From: an uncultured Fidelibacterota bacterium
GTDB lineage: Bacteria > Fidelibacterota > Marinisomatia > Marinisomatales > UBA1611
Direction: 5' to 3'
Length of the DNA stretch: 64,000 bases
NCBI GenBank assembly: GCA_913040915.1
Contig: CAJWHW010000006.1
Coordinates: forward strand, 1 to 64,000
Under the pieces are notes generated by a model. That model was given only the letters and a program-made list of their open reading frames with translations. It was not told the origin of the DNA and ran no database searches. Below, piece by piece: positions 28,001 to 56,050 of this stretch. Positions within the stretch are counted from its first letter, which is position 1, and each line of letters begins with the position of its first letter. Position numbers and translations under genes: made by a program.

Positions 28001-28963
28001 ATGACACAAATACCAGATGATGCAATCAAATGTCTAGATAAGGGGTTTGTACGGCTCGTGGATTCTATGGGTGGAGATAATGCCATTGTACAGGCAGCCC
28101 GGGTCAGTTATGGAAAAGGTACTAGTAAGTTATCTCAGGATCGTGGGCTTATCCGCTATCTTATGCGTCATCGACATACCACTCCTTTTGAAATGGTAGA
28201 ATTTAAATTTCATTGTAAAATGCCCATTTTTGTTGCTCGTCAGTGGGTGCGCCACCGTACCGCCAACATCAATGAATATTCCCTTCGCTATTCAGAAGCT
28301 AGGGATGAATTTTATTATCCTGATCCGAAGCATATTCAATTTCAATCTGGGTTAAATAAGCAAGGTCGTTTGGGTGAAGTTTCGGCGGAGTTGAAGCAAA
28401 AGGTTCAAGATTATTTCAAGGAGATCTCTGAAAAAAGTTTTGCCATGTATTCCGATTTAAATGATGCTGGTGTGGCTCGAGAACTTGCCCGTGCTATTCT
28501 TCCCGTTAATCTTTATACTGAATGGTATTGGAAGAATGATCTTCACAATCTGCTTCATTTTATAGGTCTTCGATCTGATAGCCATGCTCAATATGAGATT
28601 CAGGTATTTTCTGATGCGATGGCAGAATCGGTGAAATCTGTAGCGCCTTTCGCTTGGGAAGCCTATCAGGATTATGTAGTAAAAGGCATGCATTTTTCCC
28701 GCATTGAGCAGGGTCTCCTGGAACAATCTCTCCCAGATCGTATCATCGATGACATTAATGAAGATCTGACTTACCAGCTTATAGCAACTCTTCACCATAA
28801 TAAGCCACGGGAAGATGAAGAACTTTATAATCTTTACCAAAAACAGGGTGGTTCTGATTCAGAAAAGGATTTCCATTTAAAGTGGAACTCAGGTGAAATT
28901 AAGATTGGAAATGTAAGGGAATTGCGTGAATTCAAAGCCAAGCTGGAGAGTCTAAAAAACTAA
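28001..28963 (+). CDS. thyX: Flavin-dependent thymidylate synthase
   Basis: AARVSY, HTTPFE, RQWVRHRTANINEYSLRY, ELARAILP, HAQYEI. Confidence 0.95.
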   Translation: MTQIPDDAIKCLDKGFVRLVDSMGGDNAIVQAARVSYGKGTSKLSQDRGLIRYLMRHRHTTPFEMVEFKFHCKMPIFVARQWVRHRTANINEYSLRYSEARDEFYYPDPKHIQFQSGLNKQGRLGEVSAELKQKVQDYFKEISEKSFAMYSDLNDAGVARELARAILPVNLYTEWYWKNDLHNLLHFIGLRSDSHAQYEIQVFSDAMAESVKSVAPFAWEAYQDYVVKGMHFSRIEQGLLEQSLPDRIIDDINEDLTYQLIATLHHNKPREDEELYNLYQKQGGSDSEKDFHLKWNSGEIKIGNVRELREFKAKLESLKN

Positions 28964-29026
28964 TTTCGGTACCATAACATGGATAGGTGATGAATATTTG
29001 TCTAAATTTTAAGCTCTGTGGTATCT

Positions 29027-29386
29027 ATGACTAATAAAAACGAAGGCCATCCCCATCAGCTGTGGGAAAAGTTCTTAAAAAGTAGTCTAGATAGTTTCTA
29101 TAACTATGAAATTATTGAGTTTCTGTTTACCATTGGTACTCAAAAAAAGACCATAAGCAATTTGGACCAATAAAGACTGCCTTGGAAGCATCCCTTGCAG
29201 ATTTTTAAACATTCGACTCAATGGAGATAACATTTTATTTGGGTTTAAGATAAACCAAGTCAGGATGATATGGCTATAACTAAAAAATTGAAAGAAGGAA
29301 CTCAATCAATAGACATATCAATACATGGTTATTTAATCATTATAGGAAATGATGGTTATTCATTTGTAGAACACTGATTGATTTAG
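29027..29386 (+). pseudogene. radC: Degraded radC (JAB/MPN family) with internal deletion
   Basis: 5' fragment EGHPHQLWEKFLKSSLDSFYNYEIIEFLF; 3' fragment PSQDDMAITKKLKEG…IHGYLIII…YSF; stops, frameshifts and a missing core. Confidence 0.75.
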
Positions 29387-29450
29387 TTGCTGTAAAATTC
29401 ACAATAGTGTATAAATTTTTTAACTTTGATAATATCTTACGTTAATTAAA

Positions 29451-31664
29451 ATGTCCTTATTTAATAGAGCAGAAGTCGTTGATTTAAACTTTACTTCTCA
29501 TGTAAAGTCAGGCAACTTTCCTCCAGAAAAGACACATTTAAGTTTATCTCAGACTGATATAAGACCATCCCAATTAATTTCCATTTTTGAATCTCAGGTG
29601 TTAAGTCGCCACATGGATTTAAAAGCTCGGCTTTTAAAAGAAGAAGGGAAATGTTTTTATACAATCGGCTGTTCGGGGCATGAAGGGAATGCTGTATTTG
29701 GCCAAGTATTCCCCTATACAGATATGGCTTTTCTTCATTACCGTTCCGGTCCTTTATTCATTGAACGGTCTAAACAAATTAGCAGATCCACTCCAATTTA
29801 TGATATGGCTTTATCTTTCATGGCATCTTCTGAAGACCCTATCAGCGGAGGTCGTCACAAAGTCATTGGCAGCAAAGAGCTAAATATTCCACCACAGACC
29901 AGTACAATTTCTAGCCATTTACCGAAAGCTGTGGGAACTGCCTTTTCCATCGACCGTGCTAAAGATCTAGACATTCAGGAGAGAATCCTCAAAGAGAATA
30001 GTATTGTGATCTGTAGTTTTGGAGATGCCAGCGTTAACCATGCAACTGCTTTAAGTGCTTTTAACACTGTAAGTTGGGTTACTGCTCATGGTGGTCATGT
30101 GCCCATTATTTTTATCTGTGAAGATAACGGTACCGGTATTTCTGTTCCTACGGATAAAAAATGGGTCGAACAAAATTTTAAGAACTGCCAGGGGATCGCT
30201 TACATTCAAACTGACGGTCTTCACCTTATTGATCTAATTATGAAATCCCGACAAGCAGATCATGATTGCCGTATCAATCGATCGCCTATTTTTATCCATA
30301 TGAAAACCGTTCGGCTCATGGGGCATGCAGGATCTGATGTTGAATTAGGGTACCGATCTATTGCTGATATTGAAAGGGATGAATTTAATGACCCTTTGCT
30401 CCATTCATCACGCATTCTAATAGAAAATAAATGTTTATCTGGTGGTGAAATTTTATCTCTCTATGAGTCATCGAGAGAACAGGTAAACCATGTTTTTGAT
30501 TCAGTTACCCAAAGGCCCAAATTAGATAATGCTAAAAGTGTAATGGCCACTATCACTGCAAATAAATTCAGTCGATCTTTACCATTTCATTCCAGAAATA
30601 AGGAACGCAAAGCTCTTTTTGGGAAAGAGTTCAAAAGATTAGATCAGGCTCAGCATATGGCCAAGCTTATTAACTATGCACTGTCTGATATTATGTTGCG
30701 CTATAAGAATACCTTGGTATTCGGTGAAGATGTAGCCCAGAAAGGCGGTGTATATCATGTAACCGCTGATCTTTATAAACAGTTTGGAGTTCGTCGTGTA
30801 TTTAACAGTCCCTTGGATGAAACATCAATTATCGGTTTCGGTATCGGTTTCAGTCATAATGGGTTTATTCCGATACCGGAAATTCAATTTTTGGCCTATC
30901 TACATAATGCAGAAGATCAACTTCGGGGTGAAGCAGCTACATTACCCTTTTTCTCAGAAGGACGTTTTACAAATCCCATGGTATTACGTGTTCCGGGTCT
31001 TGCTTATCAAAAAGGTTTTGGTGGCCATTACCATAACGATAATTCTTTAACTATATTTCGTGATATTCCTGGAATCATTCTGGCTGTGCCATCCAATGGG
31101 GCCGATGCTGTAAAAATGCTTCGGACTGCCGTAAAGGAAGCCTACAAGAATGGACGTGTAGTTGTTTTTATAGAACCCATTGCACTCTATATGACCAAAG
31201 ACCTCTACAAACCAAAAGATAGGAGATGGAGTTTTCAATATCCGGATCTAAAAGATGAGATTCCTGTTGGAGAATTCGTCAGTTATGGAAATGGGAAAAT
31301 ACTCACCATTATCACATACGGAAATGGTTTATACCTATCGCTAAAAGCTCAAAAGGAGATTGAGAAACAATTAAACAAAAAGATCAAAGTAATCGATCTG
31401 AGATGGCTCTCAGATATTGATATTCCTAATTTGCTAAAAGCTATAGGCACTAGTGAAAATGTACTGATCGTAGATGAATGTCGTCGAACTGGCTGCCATG
31501 GAGAAGGCTTGGTAACTCAGTTGGTTACTGCAGCAAATAAACCACTAAATATTCAACTCCACGCAGCTGAAGATAGTTTTATTCCACTGGGTATTGCCGC
31601 AACTGCCACACTCCCCAGTAAACAGTCTATCATTGATAAGGCTCTGGAGTTAGTGAATGTTTAA
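29451..31664 (+). CDS. Fused E1 alpha/beta thiamine-diphosphate-dependent 2-oxoacid dehydrogenase
   Basis: LHYR, GGRH, ThDP motif GDAS…EDN, GHAGSD; beta part GEDVAQKGGV, PLDE, EIQFLAY, GGHYHN, IEP. Confidence 0.88.
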   Translation: MSLFNRAEVVDLNFTSHVKSGNFPPEKTHLSLSQTDIRPSQLISIFESQVLSRHMDLKARLLKEEGKCFYTIGCSGHEGNAVFGQVFPYTDMAFLHYRSGPLFIERSKQISRSTPIYDMALSFMASSEDPISGGRHKVIGSKELNIPPQTSTISSHLPKAVGTAFSIDRAKDLDIQERILKENSIVICSFGDASVNHATALSAFNTVSWVTAHGGHVPIIFICEDNGTGISVPTDKKWVEQNFKNCQGIAYIQTDGLHLIDLIMKSRQADHDCRINRSPIFIHMKTVRLMGHAGSDVELGYRSIADIERDEFNDPLLHSSRILIENKCLSGGEILSLYESSREQVNHVFDSVTQRPKLDNAKSVMATITANKFSRSLPFHSRNKERKALFGKEFKRLDQAQHMAKLINYALSDIMLRYKNTLVFGEDVAQKGGVYHVTADLYKQFGVRRVFNSPLDETSIIGFGIGFSHNGFIPIPEIQFLAYLHNAEDQLRGEAATLPFFSEGRFTNPMVLRVPGLAYQKGFGGHYHNDNSLTIFRDIPGIILAVPSNGADAVKMLRTAVKEAYKNGRVVVFIEPIALYMTKDLYKPKDRRWSFQYPDLKDEIPVGEFVSYGNGKILTIITYGNGLYLSLKAQKEIEKQLNKKIKVIDLRWLSDIDIPNLLKAIGTSENVLIVDECRRTGCHGEGLVTQLVTAANKPLNIQLHAAEDSFIPLGIAATATLPSKQSIIDKALELVNV

Positions 31665-32673
31665 ACAACGAATCGTTGTCGTTTGTCCGGGTAGGGGAAC
31701 CTATACTCGGGAAACAATCGGTTACCTTAAAACCTATGGGAAATCTGCAAAAGATCAGATTAACTGGATAGATGGGCAGCGAGAATCCACAGATCTCCTA
31801 ACACTTACCGATTTGGATAATCAACCATTCAAGACCAAGATTCATATGGCAGGAGAACATGCTTCTCCACTGATCTATGCGTGTAGTTTATCAGATTTTC
31901 TGTCTATTGATCAAAGCAAATTTGAAATTGTAGCCATAACAGGAAATTCCATGGGTTGGTATATTGCACTAGCTTTGTGCGGTGCTGTGTCTTACAAAAA
32001 TGCTTATCACCTTATTCAAACTATGGGTTCTATGATGATAGATGGTATTATTGGTGGACAAATCATTTATCCAATTATGGATGAACATTTTCATTTAGAT
32101 CCGGAAAAAAGTTCAATAGCAATGGCAGAAATAGAAAAAGCCGGTGCTTATGTATCTATTTATCTTGGTGGGTATCTGGTTATTGGGGGTGATCAAAAAG
32201 TATTGGATATACTATTGAAAAAACTTCCGCAGGAAGACAAATATCCTTTTCAACTTCCATACCATGGTGCTTTTCACACACCTTTAATGAAAAATATTTC
32301 GGCAAAGGGTCTCGCTACTCTTGAACCATCTTTATTTCAAAAACCGGTGATTCCAATGGTGGACGGGAGGGGATATATTTGGTCACCTTATTCTACGGAC
32401 ATATTTGAGTTACATCAATATACCCTTGGTCATCAAGTAACAAAATCTTATGATTTTTCTTCAGCTATCATGATAGCTATGAAAGAATTTTGTCCGGATA
32501 AACTGGTTTTATTGGGTCCTGGAAATACGTTGGGTGGTGTCGTGGCACAAATTATGATCCAAAATAAATGGCAGGATATAGATTCAAAATTTGTATTTAG
32601 GAAAAAACAAAAAAAAGATCCTTATCTCATATCTATGGGAATAGAAGAACAAAGAAAACTGATATGCACATAG
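31657..32673 (+). CDS. Divergent FabD-like acyltransferase
   Basis: CPGRG (for FPGQG), GNSMG nucleophile elbow (for GHSxG), GAFHTPLM, LGPG; overlaps the E1 stop. Confidence 0.8.
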   Translation: MFKQRIVVVCPGRGTYTRETIGYLKTYGKSAKDQINWIDGQRESTDLLTLTDLDNQPFKTKIHMAGEHASPLIYACSLSDFLSIDQSKFEIVAITGNSMGWYIALALCGAVSYKNAYHLIQTMGSMMIDGIIGGQIIYPIMDEHFHLDPEKSSIAMAEIEKAGAYVSIYLGGYLVIGGDQKVLDILLKKLPQEDKYPFQLPYHGAFHTPLMKNISAKGLATLEPSLFQKPVIPMVDGRGYIWSPYSTDIFELHQYTLGHQVTKSYDFSSAIMIAMKEFCPDKLVLLGPGNTLGGVVAQIMIQNKWQDIDSKFVFRKKQKKDPYLISMGIEEQRKLICT

Positions 32674-33791
32674 ATAGGAAAGTTGAGATTCTTGATTCAA
32701 CACTTCGAGAAGGAGAGCAGACACCTGGAGTATCCTTTTCCGTTGATCAAAAAATAGCATTGGCTAAACGATTGGATGCTTTCGGGGTAGATTTTATTGA
32801 GATGGGACACCCGGCTGTTTCTCCAGATGTTTATGAAAGTGTAGAAGCATTAAATGATCTGAGTCTCTGTGCTAATAAAGTTGCTCATGGTAGGGCGGCA
32901 AAATCAGATATCAACGATGCTTTGGCCATTGGAGTAGAATGGATAGGGATATTTTTTGGCACATCAGCCATCAGTTTGAAACATAAATTCAATGTGGATC
33001 GGCCAACGGCCCTACGGCGAATCAGAGAAGCAGTGACATACGGGAAAGATAAAGGATTAAAACTTCGTTTTACGGCAGAAGATGCCAGTCGTACTGACAT
33101 CGATTTTCTAATACAAGTGGCGCAGTTGGTCCAATCCTGCGGAGCAGACCGATTCAGTCTAGCAGATACAGTTGGCTGTCTAACTCCGACAAAAACATAT
33201 AAACTTGTGAAGAGTGTAAAATCGGAATTGGATATTCCCATTCACGTTCATTGCCATAATGATTTAGGATTAGCCACAGCAAATACCTTATCTGCTTTGG
33301 AAGCTGGAGCCCAATGTGTGGATGTGGCAGTAAATGGTCTGGGTGAGCGCTGCGGATTAGCGCCTTTGGCAGAAGTGGTGACAGTCTTAGTGAATATTTA
33401 TAAAGTGAATAGACAATGGGAATTATGTTTAATCCCTGAATTAACGGAACTGGTTACAGAATTTTCCCAATTGGATGCAGGAGATAATCAACCGGTTACA
33501 GGCAAGAATGCATTTTCCCATAAGGCCGGGCTCCATGTAAAAGCGGTGGTTAAAGACCCCAGATCCTATGAAGCTATTTCGCCCGAATCTATCAATCGCA
33601 CACGCAAGCTGGTTATAGACAAATACACAGGACGGGATGCCATCAAATATAAATTTGAATCTCTCAGTATAGTTCTAGATGAGAAGGATTTGGCTGCTGT
33701 TTTACAATGTATCAAAACCAAACCTGAAAAATTGAATTGGACGGATGTTGAACTTATTTCTCATGCTAAATCATTAGGGATTAAGGTGTAA
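32664..33791 (+). CDS. Homocitrate synthase-like DRE-TIM enzyme (no LeuA regulatory domain)
   Basis: DSTLREGEQ, RFTAEDASR, LADTVG, HCHNDLG, GLGERCG, HKAGLH, YE; 375 aa. Confidence 0.75.
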   Translation: MHIDRKVEILDSTLREGEQTPGVSFSVDQKIALAKRLDAFGVDFIEMGHPAVSPDVYESVEALNDLSLCANKVAHGRAAKSDINDALAIGVEWIGIFFGTSAISLKHKFNVDRPTALRRIREAVTYGKDKGLKLRFTAEDASRTDIDFLIQVAQLVQSCGADRFSLADTVGCLTPTKTYKLVKSVKSELDIPIHVHCHNDLGLATANTLSALEAGAQCVDVAVNGLGERCGLAPLAEVVTVLVNIYKVNRQWELCLIPELTELVTEFSQLDAGDNQPVTGKNAFSHKAGLHVKAVVKDPRSYEAISPESINRTRKLVIDKYTGRDAIKYKFESLSIVLDEKDLAAVLQCIKTKPEKLNWTDVELISHAKSLGIKV

Positions 33792-33819
33792 TTTCCAAAC
33801 CAATTTTTATAGGAAAACT

Positions 33820-34992
33820 ATGAAGAAATATGGCCCTGATTATTACGATATAACTGATCTTCTGAGTGAAGAAGAATTGCTCATACAGCAAACGGCCTAT
33901 GATTTCGTCCAGACGGAATTCATGCCGATCATAAGTAAACACTATGAAAAAGCCACTTTTCCCATGGAACTTGTACCTAAGTTAGGAGAACTTGGTTTTA
34001 TGGGATCATCTTTGCCTGAAGAATCCGGTGGTGCAGGTGTAAGCAGTGTTGCCTATGGATTGATTCTCCATGAGTTAGAACGAGGGGATTCGGGTCTTCG
34101 CTCATTTGCCAGTGTACAGGGAGCATTGGTTATGTATCCCATACATGCCTATGGTTCTGATGAACAAAAAGCTAAATGGCTTCCTGCATTGGGTTCTGGT
34201 GAAAAGATCGGCTGTTTCGGACTAACAGAACCGAACTTTGGATCTAACCCCGGGGGTATGGCTACCAAAGCTATAAGGGAAGGAGATGAATGGATTATTA
34301 GCGGAAATAAAATGTGGATCACGAATGGTTCATTAGCTGATGTTGCAGTGGTATGGGCCAAAGATGAAGAAGGTATTGTTCGGGGCTTTTTATTAGAAAA
34401 GGGAATAGACGGGTTTTCTGCACCGGTGCAGCATGGAAAATTGAGCCTTAGAGCTTCAGTTACATCGGAGCTTGTTATGGAAAATGTCCGGGTCCCTGAT
34501 TCATCACGACTACCCAATATAGAAGGGTTGAAGGGCCCCTTGAGTTGTCTGACCCAGGCACGTTATGGTATCTCCTGGGGAATGGTGGGTGCTGCTACAG
34601 ACTGCTATAATACAGCATTGGATTATTCTAAAGATAGGAAACAATTTTCCAAGCCCATTGCAGGATATCAGCTTACACAAGCAAAGCTTGCGGATATGGT
34701 TACCTTAATCACTGAAGCACAGTTATTGGTTTATCGTTTAGGAAGACTCAAAGATGAAGGTACTATGACTTTTCAGCAGGTATCTATGGCAAAGCGGAAT
34801 AACTGTTCCATGGCCCGTGATATTGCAAAAACGTCTAGGGAAATTTTAGGCGCAAATGGTATTACAGAAGACTATTCACCTATTAGGCACATGGCCAATA
34901 TTGAATCAGTGTTCACTTATGAAGGAACACATGAGATGCACACTCTGATCTTAGGACAGGATGTAACTGGCTTTGCCGCTTATGATTCATAG
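33820..34992 (+). CDS. gcdH: Glutaryl-CoA dehydrogenase
   Basis: ELERGDSGLRS, FGLTEP, KMWITN, LSLRASVT, CLTQARYGISWG, MAKRNN, TYEGT. Confidence 0.85.
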   Translation: MKKYGPDYYDITDLLSEEELLIQQTAYDFVQTEFMPIISKHYEKATFPMELVPKLGELGFMGSSLPEESGGAGVSSVAYGLILHELERGDSGLRSFASVQGALVMYPIHAYGSDEQKAKWLPALGSGEKIGCFGLTEPNFGSNPGGMATKAIREGDEWIISGNKMWITNGSLADVAVVWAKDEEGIVRGFLLEKGIDGFSAPVQHGKLSLRASVTSELVMENVRVPDSSRLPNIEGLKGPLSCLTQARYGISWGMVGAATDCYNTALDYSKDRKQFSKPIAGYQLTQAKLADMVTLITEAQLLVYRLGRLKDEGTMTFQQVSMAKRNNCSMARDIAKTSREILGANGITEDYSPIRHMANIESVFTYEGTHEMHTLILGQDVTGFAAYDS

Positions 34993-35026
34993 AATATTAT
35001 AAAAAGCTGAATTTATAATATAAAAA

Positions 35027-36196
35027 ATGTTTTTTATCATTGCTCTATTAATATTGTGGACTATACATGGCTATGTTGCATACAAGGTAATACCAACAAT
35101 TGGTTTATCTTATTATCAATCCATATTTGCTTACATTTTAACATTTTTTCTTAGTTTATTACCCATAGTTCCAATTATACTAAGAATTAGCGGTAATGAA
35201 GCAAAATTGATAGATAAATTATCTCTTGTGGGTTATACAAGCTTAGGTTTCTTTACATTATCATTTTTGACATTTTTAGTTAAAGATATATTCGTTCAAT
35301 TACTCTCTTTCTCCAGTGGATTATTTTACGATGATGAAATTATTGATGATAATAAAAGGGATTTTCTAAAGAAATCCTTATCTATTGGCTTACTTGGGAT
35401 CACGGGTTCAGCAACAGCTTATGGATTTTCAAACGCAAGGATTGGACCCAGCATTATCAAACAGGATATTTATATAGAATCGTTACCAATGGAATTTGAA
35501 GACTTCAAGATAGCACAAATTTCAGATCTCCATATTGGACCGACAATAAAGAGACCATATGTTGAAAATGTATTGGATAAGATCAGTCAAGTTAATCCAG
35601 ATCTTATTGCCGTGACAGGTGATCTGGTTGATGGTTCAGTTAAATATCTTCATTCAGATGTGCAACCCCTAAAGGATATGATCGCAGATTATGGAACTTA
35701 TTTTGTGACAGGGAATCATGAGTATTACAGTGGCGTTGATCAGTGGTTAGATGAAACTGACAAAATAGGTATGATAAATCTTGTAAATGAAAATAAAATA
35801 ATTACAAAGAATAAAATGAAAATTGTCATCGCAGGAATCACGGATTACAAGGCACATCAGATCAAACCGGAACACAAATCAAACCCAAAAAAAGCTCTTG
35901 GAAATGCACCTAAAAATCTGACTAGGATTATGCTGGCTCATCAGCCCAACAGTATCCATGCTGTTCATGAGCTAGGTGTAGATCTTCAGTTATCGGGTCA
36001 TACTCACGGAGGCCAGTTCTGGCCGTTTACTTATCCTACAAAGCTAGCGAATGCTTACCTTGCAGGGCACTATAACCATTTTGGGACACAGATTTATGTA
36101 AATCGTGGTACAGGTTATTGGGGACCACCCTTACGGTTAGGTGTTTCAGCCGAGATTAGTCTTTTTCGATTAAAGAAAAAAATAATTTTAACATAG
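35027..36196 (+). CDS. Membrane-anchored metallophosphoesterase (YkuE-like)
   Basis: SDLH, GDLVD, GNHE, LAHQP, GHTHGGQ; N-terminal transmembrane helices. Confidence 0.88.
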   Translation: MFFIIALLILWTIHGYVAYKVIPTIGLSYYQSIFAYILTFFLSLLPIVPIILRISGNEAKLIDKLSLVGYTSLGFFTLSFLTFLVKDIFVQLLSFSSGLFYDDEIIDDNKRDFLKKSLSIGLLGITGSATAYGFSNARIGPSIIKQDIYIESLPMEFEDFKIAQISDLHIGPTIKRPYVENVLDKISQVNPDLIAVTGDLVDGSVKYLHSDVQPLKDMIADYGTYFVTGNHEYYSGVDQWLDETDKIGMINLVNENKIITKNKMKIVIAGITDYKAHQIKPEHKSNPKKALGNAPKNLTRIMLAHQPNSIHAVHELGVDLQLSGHTHGGQFWPFTYPTKLANAYLAGHYNHFGTQIYVNRGTGYWGPPLRLGVSAEISLFRLKKKIILT

Positions 36197-39278: not shown

Positions 39279-40049
39279 CTAATCTAGAATAATGTTAGGG
39301 AAAAATTGATCATTTCCATCAAGTTCAATACAGGCATGCCCTTTAAGATTTACTTTTTTAAACTGCCCTTTTAGTGAATTCCCATTATGCATAAAAGAGA
39401 CAGTTTGATTAAGGTGCCCACAATAGTTTATCCAATTTTCTATAATTTCATTAGAATTTTGCAGTATTTTTTCCCAGCACTGTTCAAAAAAAGTTGTATA
39501 AATTGCGCATACTAATTCACGTTGGTGCACATTTCCTGTGACAATATTAAGAGATGTTGCTGTATTAACTAATTCACTAGGGAAATCTGTTTTAATTTCA
39601 TTGATATTTAACCCGAGACCTATAACTATAGCTTGGACTTGTTGTCCCGAAAGTCTAGTCTCACATAGAATACCGCCTACTTTTTTTTGTTGAAATAAAA
39701 TATCATTGGGCCATTTCAGATTCGGAGAAGAACCGCGGTTTTCCAATGTTCTTGCAACAGCCACTCCCGCAGCCAGAGGCACAAGACTCGCATTTTCAAT
39801 TGTGATTGAATCCATAAGAATAAGGGACATGGCCAATCCTTTACTTGGACTCATAAACCATGAATTTGTGCCACGACCCTTGCCTTTAAATTGATGATCT
39901 GTTATAACCATCATCCCATGTGTAGCTTCGCCAGAATCAATTAATTTCCAGGCTTCGTCATTTGTAGACCCCAGTCGATTATAATACTCAATCTGTTTTC
40001 CAAAGAGGTGTGTACGTAAGTTGGTTTGAATCAGGTTTGTAAAGATCAT
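39279..40049 (-). CDS. birA: Biotin--protein ligase (no HTH)
   Basis: STN, QFKGKGR, KWPND, KVGGILCE, GLGLN. Confidence 0.92.
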   Translation of the reverse strand: MIFTNLIQTNLRTHLFGKQIEYYNRLGSTNDEAWKLIDSGEATHGMMVITDHQFKGKGRGTNSWFMSPSKGLAMSLILMDSITIENASLVPLAAGVAVARTLENRGSSPNLKWPNDILFQQKKVGGILCETRLSGQQVQAIVIGLGLNINEIKTDFPSELVNTATSLNIVTGNVHQRELVCAIYTTFFEQCWEKILQNSNEIIENWINYCGHLNQTVSFMHNGNSLKGQFKKVNLKGHACIELDGNDQFFPNIILD

Positions 40050-40630
40050 GTCTCTAAAAATAGGTAGGTTAATTCAGTATAGGCTAATCCAATAGACAAA
40101 ACTATGCCTGTTATCACTTGGGTAGGCGTGTGAGCTTTTAATATTATGCGAGAAATACAAACCAATATCATGGATACGCTCATTATGACTGGTTCTTGAA
40201 TTCCAAAAATCCATAGAGCAACAAGAGGCCCACCAAGTCCAATAGCATGAATTGAAATTTTCCAATACCGAGTAATAAGCCATACAATTGCAGTATTTAA
40301 TGCATAACAGAACATAAGTCCTTGAACCAAAATCGGTGCCTGAAGATATTTTAATAGAAAAAATCCAAAACTATAATAAATGGTACCATATACTAATGGT
40401 TGAACCCGTTGCTCACGGATAGATGCATCAAAATCTGAAATTTCCCCTTCTTTTTTTAAAAATAATACTGTAGCAATAGTTAGAAGTGTAGTGAATAGGA
40501 AAGAAATAAAAAAGATTAGATGTGGATTCGAATTATTATCGCTGCCGTAAACTAATACTCCAAATGTAAATGTTGCTACTACCATTGGATGAAAAAGAAT
40601 TGAAAAAAAATTAGCTAGTTTTAACAGCAT
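40046..40630 (-). CDS. PAP2-like integral membrane protein
   Basis: Several transmembrane helices with KISIH and SRIILKAHTPTQV. Confidence 0.65.
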   Translation of the reverse strand: MLLKLANFFSILFHPMVVATFTFGVLVYGSDNNSNPHLIFFISFLFTTLLTIATVLFLKKEGEISDFDASIREQRVQPLVYGTIYYSFGFFLLKYLQAPILVQGLMFCYALNTAIVWLITRYWKISIHAIGLGGPLVALWIFGIQEPVIMSVSMILVCISRIILKAHTPTQVITGIVLSIGLAYTELTYLFLET

Positions 40631-40633
40631 GAA

Positions 40634-42127
40634 TCATATATTCCCATATTCACCAAACACTTCACGAAAAGTATCCGCTATCTCACCCAATGTACAATCA
40701 TTTTTAACACAATTAATTATAACTGGTATTACATTTTGATCTGTTTCAGCAGCGGATTTTAAATTCGCTATTTGTTTCTTAACCTGATCATTATTTCGCG
40801 TCTGCTTTAATTTCTTTATCGATGCAATTTGTTCATTAACTTTTTCTGTATCAATTTTTAAGAGCTCCGGTTCAATCTCTTCCTGATTTTCATATTTATT
40901 TACTCCAACAATGATCTTTTCTTTTGTATCAATTTTTTTCTGATAATTATAAGCACTGCTTGTAATTTCATTCTGAGTCCAACCCATCTCTATGGCTGGG
41001 ACAGCTCCACCTATTCGGTCTATTTCTTCAATAATTCTGAAGGATTCCTTTACGAAATTTTCAGTCATTTTTTCTATCACAAAACTCCCACCAAATGGAT
41101 CAGGATATTGAGGAACACCGCTTTCTTCAGCAATGATTTGCTGTGTTCTTAATGCTAATTTAACAGCTTCATCAGTCGGCAATGCCAAAGCTTCGTCCCG
41201 ACTATTTGTGTGTAGAGATTGAGTACCACCTAAGACTGCTGATAAGGCTTGAATGGTTGTCCTAACCACATTATTATTAATTTGTGTAGCAGTGAGAGTT
41301 GATCCACCTGTTTGAGTATGGAACCGACATAAAAGAGCTTTATGATTTTTAACTCCAAATCGTTTTGTCAAAATCGTAGCCCATAATTTCCTTGCAGCAC
41401 GAAACTTTGCGATCTCTTCTAGAAAACCATTGTGAGCATTAAAGAAAAAAGATAATCTTGAAGCAAACTTATTAGGGTCTAATCCTTTTTCAATTGCGGC
41501 TTGAACGTATGCAATTGCATTAGCAAATGTAAAGGCTAATTCCTGTACAGCAGTACTACCAGCTTCTCGAATATGATATCCAGAAATAGAAATTGTATTC
41601 CATTGAGGAATATATTCTGAACAAAATTCAAAAATATCTGTAGTTAGTCGCATAGAAGCAGCTGGAGGATAAATATAGGTTCCGCGAGCAATATATTCCT
41701 TTAAGATATCATTTTGAATTGTCCCTTTGATCTTGGTAGGAGTAACACCTTGTTTTTCTGCAGTAGCTATATAGAGTGCCAATAATATAGGTGCAGTTGC
41801 ATTGATTGTCATGGAAGTAGAAACTTGGTCCAACGGAATGTTTTTAAAAAGTATTTCCATATTTTGCAGGCTGGAAATAGGTACTCCTACTTTACCAACC
41901 TCGCCTGTGGCTAAAGGATGATCAGAATCGTAACCGATCTGTGTTGGAAGATCAAATGCAACTGATAAGCCCATTACACCATTTTCTAATAAGTATTTGT
42001 AGCGGTTATTTGATTCTTCTGCAGAAGTAAAGCCGGCATATTGACGTATTGTCCACAGCCTTTCTTTGTACATATCTTGATATATGCCCCGGGTGAAAGG
42101 AAATTGGCCTGGCTTTAACTTATTCAT
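40634..42127 (-). CDS. Methylmalonyl-CoA mutase, substrate-binding subunit (no B12-binding domain)
   Basis: [43 protein letters not shown]. Confidence 0.9.
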
Positions 42128-52480: not shown

Positions 52481-53251
52481 ATGAAAATTGCTGTATTAGT
52501 AAAGCAAGTTCCAAGCTCAGAATCTGCTTTAACCATTTCTGATGATCAAAGCTGGATTGATGAAAATCAAGTTACCTATGCTATGAATCATCCAGATAAC
52601 TTTGCTATTGAAGAAGCGTTATTGATCAAAGAAAGAATCGGTGATGGAGAAGTAGTAGTCGTCAGTCTTGGGCCAGATCGAACCCGAAAGGTAATCCGTG
52701 AAGGACTCGCAAAAGGAGCTGATAGGGGAATTCATTTGCAGGAACATAGTCCTATTGAAACAGACCCTTTATCCATTGCGAAAAGCTTTGCATCTGTACT
52801 GGATGATGAAAATTTTGATCTTATTTTGACAGGTTTACAATCTGATGATACTGGGATGGGGCAAACAGGTGTTTTATTAGGGGAAATGCTTGGAATGTCA
52901 ACCGCAACTTTAGCAATTGAAACTGATATTCAAAAGGGATCAATCCGTATTAAAAGAGAATTAGAGTCCGGGTGGTTTCAGTGGATTAAATTGCTTCTGC
53001 CTGCATCAATCAGTATTCAGTCTGGTTTAAATACTCCGCGTTATCCTTCTTTGAAAGGCATTATGGGTGCAAAAAAGAAAGAATTAAAAATTGTAGCTCC
53101 AGAAGATCACCAAGTTGACTCCAAAACTCAAACGATTGACAAAATATTTGTTCCGAAAACGACCAAGAAGACCGTAGTGATAGAAGGGGATGCAGATACT
53201 TCTGTCACACGTATTGTTGAAATTTTAAAATCAGATTTAAAGGTTTTGTAA
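52481..53251 (+). CDS. etfB: Electron transfer flavoprotein beta subunit
   Basis: VKQVP, AIEEAL, GADRG, GLQSDD, PRYPSLKGIMGAKKK. Confidence 0.93.
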   Translation: MKIAVLVKQVPSSESALTISDDQSWIDENQVTYAMNHPDNFAIEEALLIKERIGDGEVVVVSLGPDRTRKVIREGLAKGADRGIHLQEHSPIETDPLSIAKSFASVLDDENFDLILTGLQSDDTGMGQTGVLLGEMLGMSTATLAIETDIQKGSIRIKRELESGWFQWIKLLLPASISIQSGLNTPRYPSLKGIMGAKKKELKIVAPEDHQVDSKTQTIDKIFVPKTTKKTVVIEGDADTSVTRIVEILKSDLKVL

Positions 53252-53254
53252 AGA

Positions 53255-54193
53255 ATGGATATTTTAGTTGTACTTGAAGATAACCATGGCTCACTACATC
53301 GAATGAGTAAAGAGGCAGTCTCAGGCGCTCAGCAAATGGATGGTACAGTAACGGCTCTTGCCATCGGGGCCAATGCAGAATCTTTAGCAAATGAACTAAA
53401 TCATATAGGTTTTTCAGAAATAATTATTATCAATCATGATCTGGTCTCATCTTATAATGCGGATGGTTATGCGGAAGTTGTAAAGCAGGTAGTTGAAGCT
53501 GAAGAACCAAGATTTATTGTTGCAGGACATACTTACCAAACTCGTGATTTTATGCCTCGTGTCAGTGCAAAATTAGACATACCATTTATTCCTGATGTTA
53601 TTTCCATCAATGATGGTTATGTAAAACAAGTTTTGAATGCAAAATTTAATGCAGTCTGCTTTTTTTCTGCTCAACAAGCGATTATAAGTTTTCAATCTGC
53701 TGCATTTAACGAAGATGATATTTTTTCTGGGGCTGGCGCATCACGGATTTTTAATGTTAATTTAGATTCATCTGTTATTCAAGTAGAATCAGAAGAGCCA
53801 TTTCAAGAAGCGGCAGGAGATGTAGACATCGATGCCGCAGAATGGCTTGTTTCCATTGGTCGTGGAATTGAGGATGAAGAGAATGTACAAATGGCCTTTG
53901 ATTTGGCGTTAGCTCTTGGGGCTGAAGTTGTTGCAAGCCGTCCAGTAGTAGATTCCGGGTGGGTTGATGGATTTAGGCAAGTTGGAAGCTCAGGACTCAA
54001 TGTAGCACCAAAACTTTATTTTTCCCTTGGTGTTTCCGGTGCAATACAGCATGTTGTGGGGATGAAAGGTTCAAAAAGTATCATTGCAATTAACAAGGAT
54101 CCGGAAGCACCTATTTTTGAAATAGCGGATTATGCCGTTGTTGGTGATCTTTTGGAAATTGTACCTAAACTGATTGAGGTATTAAAAGGATAA
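53255..54193 (+). CDS. etfA: Electron transfer flavoprotein alpha subunit
   Basis: [37 protein letters not shown]. Confidence 0.93.
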
Positions 54194-54205
54194 TCAAAAA
54201 TCTTG

Positions 54206-56050
54206 ATGGATAACATTACCTTTTCTGTTCCCGAAAAATTAATTCTTGCAGCATTAACCCTTGGAGCACTGAGTTCATTTTGCTATGAGGTGAACCGCCG
54301 AATTATTATCATTCGAAAAGGGATTGGCTCTCTACCATTTGATCGAATTCCTGAAAGGCTTTTTCGTGTTTTTAAAGAAGTTTTTCTCCATGAAAAAGTA
54401 ATACGTGAACGGCCTTTTCCCGGATTCATGCATGCTCTGGTTTTTTGGGGATTTCTTGTATTTGGTCTGGTTACTTTAGATCATTTCGCTATTGGTTTTC
54501 ATAAACCTATTCTATCTGAGTCCGCACACCATAATTACTCATTGATTGTTATACCATTTTCCATATTAGTGATTTTTGGGATTATTTCGTTGGCTTACCG
54601 ACGTTTTATAACACGACCAAAATCATTAGGAGATTTATCTCCAACTTCAGGTTTGGTGACAGTATTTATTGTGATCTTAATGTTAACCTATTTATTGGGT
54701 GAAATGGGAATTTCTTCTACTCTATGGAAAATAAATTGGTGGATTCACAGTGTTGTGATTCTTGCTTTTTTGATATTAATTCCTCGAAGTAAACACCTAC
54801 ACCTGGTTTTAGCGCCATTCAATATTTTCTTCAGGCCATTTACGCAGCCGGAGCACACGCCAGTGCATATCGATTTAGAGGGAGATGAAGATGAATTAGA
54901 TTCTATGCTCACGAGCCTAAACAAATTAACTCAAAATCAGGCATTAGATATTTTTTCCTGTGTGGAGTGTGGACGTTGTACAGATGTTTGTCCTGCGAAT
55001 AGAGGTGGGGGTATTTTGGATCCAAAACATCATTTTATAATGGATCTTCGTGCGCCTCTTCTTGAAGAAAAGGATGTGACTGTTTTGGATCGTGTAAACA
55101 TTGAAGCAGGATGGGAGTGCACAACCTGCCAAGCATGTACGGAAGTTTGTCCTGTTGGTAACCATGTTGAAAAATCTGATGAGATCAGGCGCTTAGAAGT
55201 TTTAGTAGAAGGACGAGTCCCACAAGAATATCAAAAATTATTTACCAATCTTCAGGAAACAGGCAATACGGAAGGTGCGTCTTCCAGCGCATTTGCAGAT
55301 TCATTTCCCACTTATACATCAGATAAAGATTATGTATTATGGCTTGGATGTTTTGCCCGTCATGGATTGGATCCAAATTTTAATGAATCGGTAGAAAATT
55401 TCACAAAAATTCTTGATGTTGCAGGTGTGACTTATGGTGTTCTGGCCGAGGAACATTGTAGCGGTGATCCTGCTAACCGGTTAGGGGATAAACTTACCTA
55501 CACGATGCTTCGAGAACATAATCTAGAACAACTTTCAGAAACGAAAAAAGTAGTAACTCTCTGTCCACATTGTGCAGTTAATCTTGGTAAAGAATATTCA
55601 AATTATGGAGAAGTAAATTACACAGTTGAACATCACACCCAAGTGATTGGTAGATTAATTGATGAAGGGAAGATCAAAGTCCAAATGGGTGAAAACGGAA
55701 AGGTTACTTATCATGATCCCTGTAACCTTTCAAGAATGTTAGATATTGTTGATGAACCACGAACTGCTATTCAGGCTGTATCATCAGATTATCAGGAAAT
55801 GGAGGAATATGGCCGCAATACATTATGCTGCGGTGCAGGTGGTGCTTTATGGTGGAAAAAAGAAACTCAAGGTCGTACACATCTTGTAAGAGCAGAGCAG
55901 GTGATAGAATCAAAAGCTGATACTGTTGTTACCGGCTGCAATTTTTGTTATGGTATGATGAAACAGGGCTTAGGACCCATGATGCCTGAAGGTCGCGATG
56001 AAGTCCAGGTAAAAGATGTAGCTGATATTGTAGCAGACAATCTAATATAG
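54206..56050 (+). CDS. Membrane Fe-S oxidoreductase (FadF/EtfD/EMO-like, HdrD family)
   Basis: TM domain with His residues (MHALVFWGF, WIHS, SKHLH); CVECGRCTDVCP and CTTCQACTEVCP; CSG and CCG domains, HDPC. Confidence 0.88.
   Translation: MDNITFSVPEKLILAALTLGALSSFCYEVNRRIIIIRKGIGSLPFDRIPERLFRVFKEVFLHEKVIRERPFPGFMHALVFWGFLVFGLVTLDHFAIGFHKPILSESAHHNYSLIVIPFSILVIFGIISLAYRRFITRPKSLGDLSPTSGLVTVFIVILMLTYLLGEMGISSTLWKINWWIHSVVILAFLILIPRSKHLHLVLAPFNIFFRPFTQPEHTPVHIDLEGDEDELDSMLTSLNKLTQNQALDIFSCVECGRCTDVCPANRGGGILDPKHHFIMDLRAPLLEEKDVTVLDRVNIEAGWECTTCQACTEVCPVGNHVEKSDEIRRLEVLVEGRVPQEYQKLFTNLQETGNTEGASSSAFADSFPTYTSDKDYVLWLGCFARHGLDPNFNESVENFTKILDVAGVTYGVLAEEHCSGDPANRLGDKLTYTMLREHNLEQLSETKKVVTLCPHCAVNLGKEYSNYGEVNYTVEHHTQVIGRLIDEGKIKVQMGENGKVTYHDPCNLSRMLDIVDEPRTAIQAVSSDYQEMEEYGRNTLCCGAGGALWWKKETQGRTHLVRAEQVIESKADTVVTGCNFCYGMMKQGLGPMMPEGRDEVQVKDVADIVADNLI

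Follow-up and report, generated by a model that had tools for sequence, protein, structure and literature searches.

The genomic window analyzed in this work is a 64,000-nt stretch (C6:1-64000) of a SAR406/Marinimicrobia metagenome-assembled genome (G000; 1.86 Mb in 71 contigs, 85% complete), whose close relatives are named Marinimicrobia, Neomarinimicrobiota or Fidelibacterota (SAR406). In the dark ocean these uncultured bacteria are abundant and consume carbon derived from proteins. At positions 29451-34992 the open reading frame (ORF) listing contains four co-oriented genes on the + strand, encoding a fused alpha-beta E1 component of 2-oxoacid dehydrogenases, a FabD-like acyltransferase (AT), a homocitrate synthase (HCS) and a glutaryl-CoA dehydrogenase (GCDH) (Table 1). 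Two of the junctions are overlaps, of 8 nt between the E1 and AT genes and of 10 nt between the AT and HCS genes, and the third is a gap of 28 nt between the HCS and GCDH genes, in agreement with the two overlapping junctions and the 28-nt gap of the original prediction, an annotation made from the nucleotide sequence alone. No terminator-like site was found by a consensus scan in any of the three junctions, and the four genes probably constitute one operon.

Table 1. Coordinates of the gene cluster and of the associated features in the G000 genome (contig C6 unless another contig is given)
Feature	Position	Strand	Length and remarks
Spacer upstream of E1	28964..29450	none	487 nt; patchy alignment to the thyX-E1 spacer of locus L010
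Fused E1 alpha-beta	29451..31664	+	737 aa
FabD-like acyltransferase (AT)	31657..32673	+	338 aa
Homocitrate synthase (HCS) without RAM domain	32664..33791	+	375 aa
Glutaryl-CoA dehydrogenase (GCDH)	33820..34992	+	390 aa
Electron transfer flavoprotein (ETF) genes, ETF beta and ETF alpha	52481..54193	+	PF01012; PF00766+PF01012
Fe-S/CCG-domain oxidoreductase	54203..56050	+	615 aa; PF02754 and Fer4 domains (4Fe-4S dicluster)
Second E1 locus (L088)	C29:883-7938		Order: Lpd, LipB, fused E1 alpha-beta (667 aa), E2 (428 aa), methyltransferase, radical-SAM protein

The synthase is assigned by its sequence as a true HCS, neither an isopropylmalate synthase (IPMS) nor a CimA protein. It contains the HMGL-like and HCS_D2 domains (Pfam), narrowly passes the equivalog model TIGR02146 (LysS_fung_arch; 417.2 bits at a cut-off of 413.55) and falls below the cut-off on every IPMS, CimA and NifV model of NCBIfam. 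The four solved proteins closest to it are likewise HCS (Sulfolobus 6ktq, 329 bits; S. pombe 3ivs, 222 bits; Thermus 3a9i and 2ztj, 221 bits), and the best IPMS in the same PDB search reached 191 bits. Residues E16, H75, R135, T137, E139, T169 and H196/H198 align to the same residues in the solved S. pombe, Thermus and Sulfolobus enzymes, so that both the metal ligands and the residues holding 2-oxoglutarate are those of HCS; the columns E16/H75/R135/T137/H196/H198 are identical in 12 aligned Marinimicrobia HCS. At the discriminating columns, the two long LeuA paralogs of G000 on contig C2 carry D, L/F, E/I and S/D. Apart from Arg43, the roles of the active-site columns are those that we take to be general for the family, namely a metal-binding Glu (Asp in IPMS), the HxH motif and contacts to the distal carboxylate of 2-oxoglutarate. 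For Arg43, a role is described in the HCS literature (PMC8276798). The TIGR02146 match, the solved relatives and the active-site columns thus uphold the homocitrate synthase named in the original prediction over the isopropylmalate and citramalate synthases that it had considered as alternatives.

The ratios of nonsynonymous to synonymous substitution rates (dN/dS) are low for all three upstream genes (0.065-0.124 for HCS in four pairs, 0.086-0.114 for E1 and 0.098-0.148 for AT). The HCS gene is under purifying selection, and the low dN/dS together with the unchanged 2-oxoglutarate-site columns argues that its product is catalytically intact and functional. The in-cluster HCS has no C-terminal lysine-sensing RAM regulatory domain. 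In one relative (G313; locus L127, 6941-8089), the HCS frame is open and full-length but lacks an ATG, GTG or TTG close to its expected beginning; one of these codons first occurs about 60 codons in, which reflects either a rare start codon or a recent disabling of the gene.

The E1 protein combines PF00676, PF02779 and PF02780 (E1_dh, Transket_pyr and Transketolase_C in Pfam) in one chain, with a GDA...N thiamine-diphosphate-type motif at residues 191-226. Its best solved relatives in a PDB sequence search are beta and alpha chains of the heterotetrameric pyruvate dehydrogenase/branched-chain 2-oxoacid dehydrogenase (PDH/BCKDH) type, not of the 2-oxoglutarate dehydrogenase (OGDH) type, and no SucA-type E1 was found in the G000 genome. 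Neither E2 nor E3 is encoded in the operon, and thus the E1 is not co-encoded with the lipoyl E2 and E3 of a complete 2-oxoacid dehydrogenase complex. The only E2 (PF00198) of G000, with an adjacent E3, is located on contig C29 beside a second fused E1. No PDH or OGDH model scores this E2 above its cut-off, and the radical-SAM protein of the same locus is probably LipA. The E1 and AT of the operon probably work with the lipoyl-E2/E3 pair of C29.

The AT has no match in Pfam. Its score on the FabD model TIGR00128 is 47.9 bits at a cut-off of 260.9, which places it outside the FabD family proper, and the canonical fabD gene of G000 was located elsewhere (C9:46004, 347 bits). A profile of 18 AT orthologs retrieved only FabD/AT chains from PDB (best E-value 1.5e-12), and the nucleophile elbow GNSMGW and the motif AFHT are conserved. 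At the positions that presumably correspond to Gln11 and Arg117 of FabD, the protein has Arg and Thr-Met. These features point to a FabD-like acyltransferase private to the E1 rather than to FabD itself; its putative role is the transfer of a glutaryl group to CoA, where the acceptor could be CoA or water. The E1 and AT genes overlap in other loci; on a complete 2.14-Mb chromosome (G146, the same as G215; locus L008, 6270-7000) about 730 nt separate them, a stretch in which no + strand ORF reaches 70 aa.

The fourth gene is assigned to the decarboxylating GCDH subfamily. Its product has the three acyl-CoA dehydrogenase (ACAD) domains of Pfam and matches solved GCDHs at 400-475 bits (2eba, 475; human 1sir, 400), with other ACAD subfamilies scoring at most 258 bits (ACX4, 258; short-chain acyl-CoA dehydrogenase, about 220); NCBIfam has no equivalog covering this subfamily. 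Residues R94-S95 and Y367-E368-G369 are present, of which we take R94 and E368 to be the counterparts of human Arg94 and Glu370, an equation exact only to within 1-2 positions. The E1, AT and GCDH identities proposed in the original prediction all hold by the Pfam, NCBIfam and PDB searches, as does its ETF system at 52.5-56 kb, where PF01012, PF00766, PF02754 and Fer4 were found. The ETF and the Fe-S/CCG protein are the likely electron acceptors for GCDH. The latter gene lies directly behind etfB and etfA, where an ETF:quinone oxidoreductase would be expected, and its product probably passes electrons from ETF into the membrane.

The genome of G000 also encodes enzymes that could deliver 2-oxoadipate from lysine. 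Contig C19 carries a lysine 6-transaminase (LAT; TIGR03251, 621.5 bits at a cut-off of 520.8), a piperideine-6-carboxylate (P6C) dehydrogenase (NF050084, 792.4 bits at a cut-off of 730) and, 12 kb off these two genes, a LysN-like aminotransferase that is 49% identical to the aminotransferase of an aminoadipate operon in a related genome (G059). By homology, these enzymes would convert lysine to 2-aminoadipate and 2-oxoadipate. LAT was present in 6 of 6 related genomes checked and in each of 14 good HCS-positive genomes, those at least 90% complete. Because LAT, P6C dehydrogenase and a LysN-like aminotransferase occur elsewhere in the genome, E1-AT-GCDH fits the lower leg of lysine catabolism, an assignment that we regard as supported.

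To analyze the conservation of the cluster, an alignment of AT orthologs was used to retrieve 80 loci from named genomes, which were then searched by tblastn with the window proteins. The E1 gene adjoins the AT gene in 79 of the 80 loci (the one exception starts at AT), 62 of the loci contain a GCDH-type ACAD, and HCS is present in 10, always in the order E1-AT-HCS-GCDH. The trio of E1, AT and GCDH crosses phyla, being found in Marinimicrobia, Bdellovibrionota, Oligoflexus, Shewanella, Colwellia, Thalassotalea, Pseudoalteromonas and others; in Shewanella aquimarina, a gene for a LysR-type regulator is located divergently upstream of it.

HCS orthologs were then surveyed in 233 genomes of the order (E<=1e-90) and detected in 57 of them, including 25 of the 100 high-quality genomes. 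Thirty-two of the loci were examined, comprising the 29 best matches other than G000 itself plus those of G313, G311 and G238. GCDH is directly downstream of HCS in 27; of the remaining five, four end at a contig or locus edge and one (L117) is truly without GCDH. The two genes are 31-39 nt apart in 22 of the 27 loci showing both. Upstream of HCS stands E1-AT in 20 of the 32 loci and a 2-oxoacid:ferredoxin oxidoreductase (OFOR) in 10, with neither assigned in two. This OFOR consists of a divergently transcribed KorA-like protein (POR_N and PFOR_II, 365-392 aa) followed by a KorB-gamma fusion (TPP_enzyme_C and POR, 443 aa), is below the NCBIfam cut-offs (355.9 vs 411 for the alpha subunit), and occupies the same slot as E1-AT, between thyX/radC and HCS. 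A genome of the family of G000 that has no HCS (G047) contains an OFOR|GCDH pair, which makes four architectures in total: E1-AT-GCDH, E1-AT-HCS-GCDH, OFOR|GCDH and OFOR|HCS-GCDH. The arrangement is not a chance adjacency, and the HCS-GCDH pair is its constant element. The synteny of the synthase, which the original prediction had named as a check, is thus documented both by the E1-AT-HCS-GCDH order in 20 of 32 loci of the order and by the 10 AT loci. None of the outcomes that the original prediction had listed as refuting was encountered.

In a tree of HCS proteins built with a quick search (64 rows, 55 distinct), the 40 rows of GCDH-linked HCS group together (SH-aLRT 82, not starred), and within this group the E1-AT and OFOR types are interleaved; for example, the HCS of L101 and L106 are 92% identical. 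The seven HCS belonging to aminoadipate operons are placed apart, in a starred clade of their own, and only these seven have the RAM extension of about 95 aa (460-470 aa vs 364-384 aa in the others). The topology suggests that E1-AT and a KorAB-type OFOR have repeatedly taken each other's place as the presumed supplier of glutaryl-CoA. A single origin of the in-cluster HCS was sought on a tree of E1+AT, from which L009 and L012 were omitted (E1 cut) and which contained only five outgroup loci, and was not shown, with at least three changes among 26 rows.

Since two non-homologous acyl-CoA-making 2-oxoacid enzymes are exchanged next to one GCDH, we propose that both would supply glutaryl-CoA from 2-oxoadipate; their exchange beside the same HCS-GCDH pair points to one pathway. 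No AT was found in any of the 11 genomes that lack an adjacent E1-AT (73-97% complete), whereas 3 of 3 positive controls had it; the 11 were eight checked genomes of the OFOR type, G233 (OFOR without adjacent GCDH), and G212 and G214 (upstream side cut off). As the AT is gone wherever OFOR replaces the adjacent E1, it appears to belong to the E1 mechanism and not to a downstream loading of acyl carrier protein (ACP). The exchange thus indicates that the E1+AT pair makes an acyl-CoA from a 2-oxoacid.

The same observations bear on the option of the original prediction that the cluster supplies, via the AT, a glutaryl- or pimeloyl-ACP primer for biotin or lipid synthesis. The AT is indeed in the FabD superfamily, and BioZ-type biotin synthesis reportedly starts from a glutaryl thioester (PMC8024396). 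However, none of 6 genomes, one of them a complete chromosome, yielded bioB, the AT is missing from the 11 genomes whose HCS-GCDH pair is without E1-AT and so is not a required downstream step, and the most conserved partner is GCDH, an enzyme that destroys glutaryl-CoA. The primer option is therefore disfavored: for biotin it is largely refuted, and as a whole we consider it extremely unlikely.

The genomic context of the HCS orthologs allowed us to analyze the relationship of the in-cluster enzyme to lysine biosynthesis. Among 121 sampled genomes of the phylum, HCS orthologs with more than 50% identity were found only in G000, G063, G059 and G107, all of one order. The ortholog of G059 is 56% identical, possesses a C-terminal AsnC/RAM domain and belongs to a complete aminoadipate operon encoding LysW, LysX, LysY, LysZ, LysJ, LysK, HCS, homoaconitase (TIGR00139, 660.9 vs 529.9), homoisocitrate dehydrogenase (HICDH) and an aminotransferase. 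In G000, which is 85% complete, neither a lysW search nor tblastn with the G059 operon proteins found LysW, LysK, LysZ, LysY, homoaconitase or HICDH orthologs (the search did not extend to the fungal Lys2 route). The one LysX-like match of G000, on C19, is a RimK-type protein; the aconitase family is represented there by LeuC and a single aconitase, and Iso_dh by LeuB alone. The statement of the original prediction that homoaconitase and HICDH are outside the window can thus be widened from the window to the assembled genome. Of five genomes, two of them being G063 (96% complete) and the complete G146 chromosome, G059 alone has homoaconitase and LysX orthologs. Two operons of intermediate appearance were also observed. 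In G107, a LysN-like aminotransferase gene directly follows HCS, which looks like an operon of the G059 type that has lost homoaconitase and HICDH, and an aminoadipate operon of G136 (L133, 887-9554) has two tandem LysX-like genes and an HCS gene followed by a LysN-like aminotransferase gene with no homoaconitase or HICDH between them.

The lysA gene is present in G063, G059 and 11 of the 14 good HCS-positive genomes, including G286 of the same genus as G000, and was not found in G000, G274, G269 or the complete G215. Because lysA is present and the aminoadipate partners are missing, the majority of these genomes do not need HCS to make lysine. The possibility that the HCS is an aminoadipate lysine-biosynthesis gene that merely stands beside catabolic genes, as in a part of the third option of the original prediction, could draw on the complete operon of G059 and on the missing lysA of G000 and of 3 of the 14 genomes, but the lack of LysW, LysX, LysY, LysZ and LysK together with homoaconitase and HICDH, the lysA gene of the other 11 and the loss of the lysine-sensing RAM domain make it very improbable. 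Of that option, lysine catabolism is retained, given the LAT, P6C dehydrogenase and LysN-like genes, and the co-located biosynthetic gene is given up.

A change of function is another explanation: the HCS could use acetyl-CoA with oxaloacetate (as Re-citrate synthase) or with 2-oxoadipate (as AksA), or another acyl-CoA from the pathway. In keeping with this, the in-cluster HCS are only 45-60% identical to those of aminoadipate operons, the equivalog cut-off is barely passed and the RAM domain has been lost. Nevertheless, every substrate and metal column that was checked is the same as in the HCS of aminoadipate operons and agrees with the solved enzymes, and we consider such a change improbable. 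Re-citrate synthase in particular was set aside, as it is unneeded beside the canonical citrate synthase (gltA) found in 6 of 6 genomes.

The explanation that we tentatively favor, at somewhat less than even chances for the whole of it, is that HCS feeds 2-oxoglutarate into the leg from 2-oxoadipate to crotonyl-CoA, beside lysine breakdown. In the proposed route, E1 would decarboxylate 2-oxoadipate, the private FabD-like AT would deliver the glutaryl group to CoA, and GCDH would convert glutaryl-CoA to crotonyl-CoA with electrons passing to the ETF system, after which crotonyl-CoA would yield two acetyl-CoA. Lysine would enter by way of LAT, P6C dehydrogenase and the LysN-like aminotransferase, all leading to 2-oxoadipate. 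HCS would open a second entry by joining 2-oxoglutarate and acetyl-CoA into homocitrate, which would be taken to 2-oxoadipate by a housekeeping aconitase and then by a hydratase and a decarboxylating dehydrogenase without named genes, or by LeuCD and LeuB where these are present; the net conversion would be of 2-oxoglutarate to acetyl-CoA and 3 CO2. HCS is read as a chain-extension enzyme because the extension of 2-oxoglutarate to 2-oxoadipate is the only known chemistry linking it to this leg. The gene identities, their synteny, the purifying selection, the swap of partners and the missing biosynthetic partners are direct observations; what we infer in this explanation is the substrates of E1 and OFOR, the mechanism of AT, the steps between homocitrate and 2-oxoadipate, and the direction and size of the flux.

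Several observations weigh against this route, first of all at the steps after homocitrate. According to PMC3556520, ordinary aconitases convert homocitrate to homoaconitate, which is only the first half of the isomerization; homoaconitases are needed for the second half, and the activity of yeast Aco1p on homoaconitate is about 4% of that on aconitate. No homoaconitase- or HICDH-type match was found in any of the 14 HCS-positive genomes (the PrpD, AcnX and class-I fumarase families were not searched), and only five of the 14 have LeuC and LeuB. The other nine contain one aconitase-family gene and one full-scoring Iso_dh gene each. Both were typed in one of the nine, the complete G146 chromosome, where they are a mitochondrial-type aconitase (TIGR01340, 1110 vs 825) and an NADP isocitrate dehydrogenase (TIGR00183, 639.6 vs 567.3). 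The third Iso_dh gene of G107 was considered as a hidden HICDH and rejected, being of the tartrate dehydrogenase type (TIGR02089, 550.9 vs 470.4).

The need for the route is also in question. A separate fused-type OFOR and citrate synthase were each found in 6 of 6 genomes checked, the fused OFOR of G000 lying just beyond the window at C6:70481, so that a bypass is not obviously needed. A missing 2-oxoglutarate oxidation, considered as the reason for a bypass, is accordingly not supported by these genomes, the specificity of the fused OFOR being unassigned. With LAT in all 14 HCS-positive genomes, lysine alone could explain the catabolic leg, and the argument that HCS is a forced source of 2-oxoadipate in HCS-positive genomes without lysine catabolism finds no support. 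The bypass of 2-oxoglutarate oxidation put forward in the original prediction therefore stands as the best reading of HCS, but as an incomplete one, with the dedicated isomerase and dehydrogenase genes missing and a separate fused OFOR present.

Moreover, the junction between AT, HCS and GCDH tolerates unrelated DNA. In L078 (8020-11228), a riboflavin operon on the opposite strand (ribH, ribBA, ribE and ribD, by NCBIfam) lies between AT and GCDH; in L127 (8082-11299), a four-ORF insert on the opposite strand, with sizes matching those of L078, lies between HCS and GCDH; and the HCS-GCDH gap of L128 is 3319 nt, the same length as the L127 insert. Related RAM-less HCS (364-373 aa) also stand alone in other Marinimicrobia (L086, L136, L138, L140, L141 and L145). 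Their neighbors are Na+:solute or Na+:alanine symporters together with genes of amino-acid metabolism, and neither GCDH nor any gene of the aminoadipate pathway is close by; this type of HCS may therefore have a role unrelated to GCDH.

These lone enzymes, the unrelated rib operon at the same junction of another lineage, and the nine genomes without any known enzyme for the two steps after homoaconitate are the arguments for an HCS with a role of its own, independent of both homoaconitase and GCDH. Such an enzyme could, for example, make homocitrate as its end product or act as a 2-oxoglutarate/acetyl-CoA valve, and it would have come into the operon through a shared signal (lysine or 2-oxoglutarate) or a permissive insertion slot. 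On the other side, the HCS gene overlaps the AT stop codon by 10 nt and keeps its short distance to GCDH in most loci, and the HCS-GCDH pair stays together while the upstream partner is swapped. We also know of no use of free homocitrate outside the synthesis of the nitrogenase cofactor, a point that counts against such a role (nif genes were not searched). An independent role is thus a serious alternative, although on balance an unlikely one.

Returning to the feeding of 2-oxoglutarate into the leg, its fullest form would be a natural "homocitrate shunt", in which HCS, aconitase and isocitrate dehydrogenase (or other enzymes) extend 2-oxoglutarate and the resulting 2-oxoadipate is burnt via glutaryl-CoA and crotonyl-CoA to acetyl-CoA, so that glutamate and 2-oxoglutarate are oxidized through the lysine-catabolic leg independently of 2-oxoglutarate dehydrogenase and with a swappable decarboxylase cassette. 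We regard this as conceivable but rather doubtful. The cassette would be either a lipoyl/NAD-type E1 with its private transacylase or a ferredoxin-type OFOR, which strains may exchange according to oxygen niche.

If HCS does feed the leg, a biosynthetic entry enzyme has been recruited to a catabolic operon, which would be a new way to oxidize 2-oxoglutarate or glutamate, and the OFOR of the sister loci would be a candidate 2-oxoadipate:ferredoxin oxidoreductase. In the literature, we found no description of an OFOR specific for 2-oxoadipate, of HCS in a GCDH operon or of a pair of E1 with a FabD-like AT, and nothing on Marinimicrobia with homocitrate synthase, on lysine and glutaryl-CoA in Marinimicrobia, or on LAT, 2-oxoadipate and GCDH together in marine bacteria. 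The cluster thus brings together, in a conserved combination that is new, a catabolic leg and a synthase that are each known, and its decarboxylase cassette is swappable. Whatever the role of HCS, the repeated exchange of E1+AT and KorAB next to GCDH represents a new kind of comparative evidence.

The regulation of the operon was approached through its upstream region. We interpret the 487 nt preceding E1 as a decayed radC remnant with a large internal deletion, a scar of gene loss, because this spacer shows a patchy match to the L010 spacer and because L121 has a RadC-family gene (224 aa) at the matching place, between thyX and OFOR. The upstream spacer is reduced to about 75-80 nt in L004 and L005. 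The putative operon promoter presumably lies within the 487-nt spacer. In the consensus scan, promoter-like sites (28 vs 31.7+/-4.5 in shuffles) and terminator-like sites (7 vs 5.6+/-2.2) were at chance level, and Rfam gave no match at E<=1 in 28700-35200. Assembled RNA contigs from 4 RNA runs (of 22 runs for 29000-35100) are short pieces, mainly inside GCDH (33854-34525), none of which bridges a junction, and they are uninformative on co-transcription. On the opposite strand, 4-7 kb downstream of the cluster (39279-42127), the window contains genes for a BPL/LplA/LipB-family ligase and a methylmalonyl-CoA mutase large subunit.

Among the known systems, the nearest to the catabolic leg is the animal 2-oxoadipate dehydrogenase complex, in which the DHTKD1 E1a works with a shared E2o and E3 according to PMC9367764 and PMC10003691. 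Together with GCDH, it catalyzes the same conversion of 2-oxoadipate via glutaryl-CoA to crotonyl-CoA as is proposed here, and its E1 also borrows E2 and E3. However, the cluster E1 is a fused alpha-beta protein of the PDH/BCKDH type and not a homodimeric OGDH-like protein of the DHTKD1 type, and the Marinimicrobia operon, unlike the animal system, has a private FabD-like AT, an HCS and no E2, with replacement by OFOR in sister genomes. A precedent for the AT, by analogy and inference only, is ABHD11, described in PMC12643935 as a mitochondrial glutaryl-lipoyl thioesterase that clears glutaryl from lipoate on the shared E2. Both are serine-nucleophile enzymes, and ABHD11 would exemplify a dedicated acyl-removing enzyme in a case where E1 glutarylates a borrowed lipoyl arm, but ABHD11 is a hydrolase of the alpha/beta-hydrolase fold whereas the AT is FabD-like. 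The OFOR of the sister loci resembles the KorAB type in its POR_N and PFOR_II alpha subunit and its TPP_enzyme_C and POR beta-gamma subunit, and would carry out with one enzyme the net reaction proposed for E1+AT; it differs in falling below the NCBIfam cut-offs and in being a second OFOR beside the fused type in the 6 genomes checked.

With the aminoadipate pathway of Thermus, Sulfolobus, fungi and the G059 operon, the cluster shares an orthologous HCS with the same metal and 2-oxoglutarate columns, its best solved match being 6ktq. In contrast to that pathway, its HCS is without RAM, no homoaconitase, HICDH or LysW-pathway genes were found with it in the G000 genome, and it adjoins an enzyme destroying the product line of the pathway. 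Finally, a +1 carbon chain extension route to glutarate was engineered in E. coli (Wang et al. 2017, as summarized in the review PMC12861294). Like the route proposed here, it starts from 2-oxoglutarate with HCS and proceeds via 2-oxoadipate to a decarboxylated C5 dicarboxylate unit. The engineered route is synthetic, uses yeast homoaconitase and HICDH, the non-oxidative KivD and an aldehyde dehydrogenase, and ends at free glutarate, whereas the natural cluster would form glutaryl-CoA oxidatively and pass it onward to crotonyl-CoA; if HCS indeed feeds this leg, the Marinimicrobia operon would be the natural counterpart of the engineered pathway.

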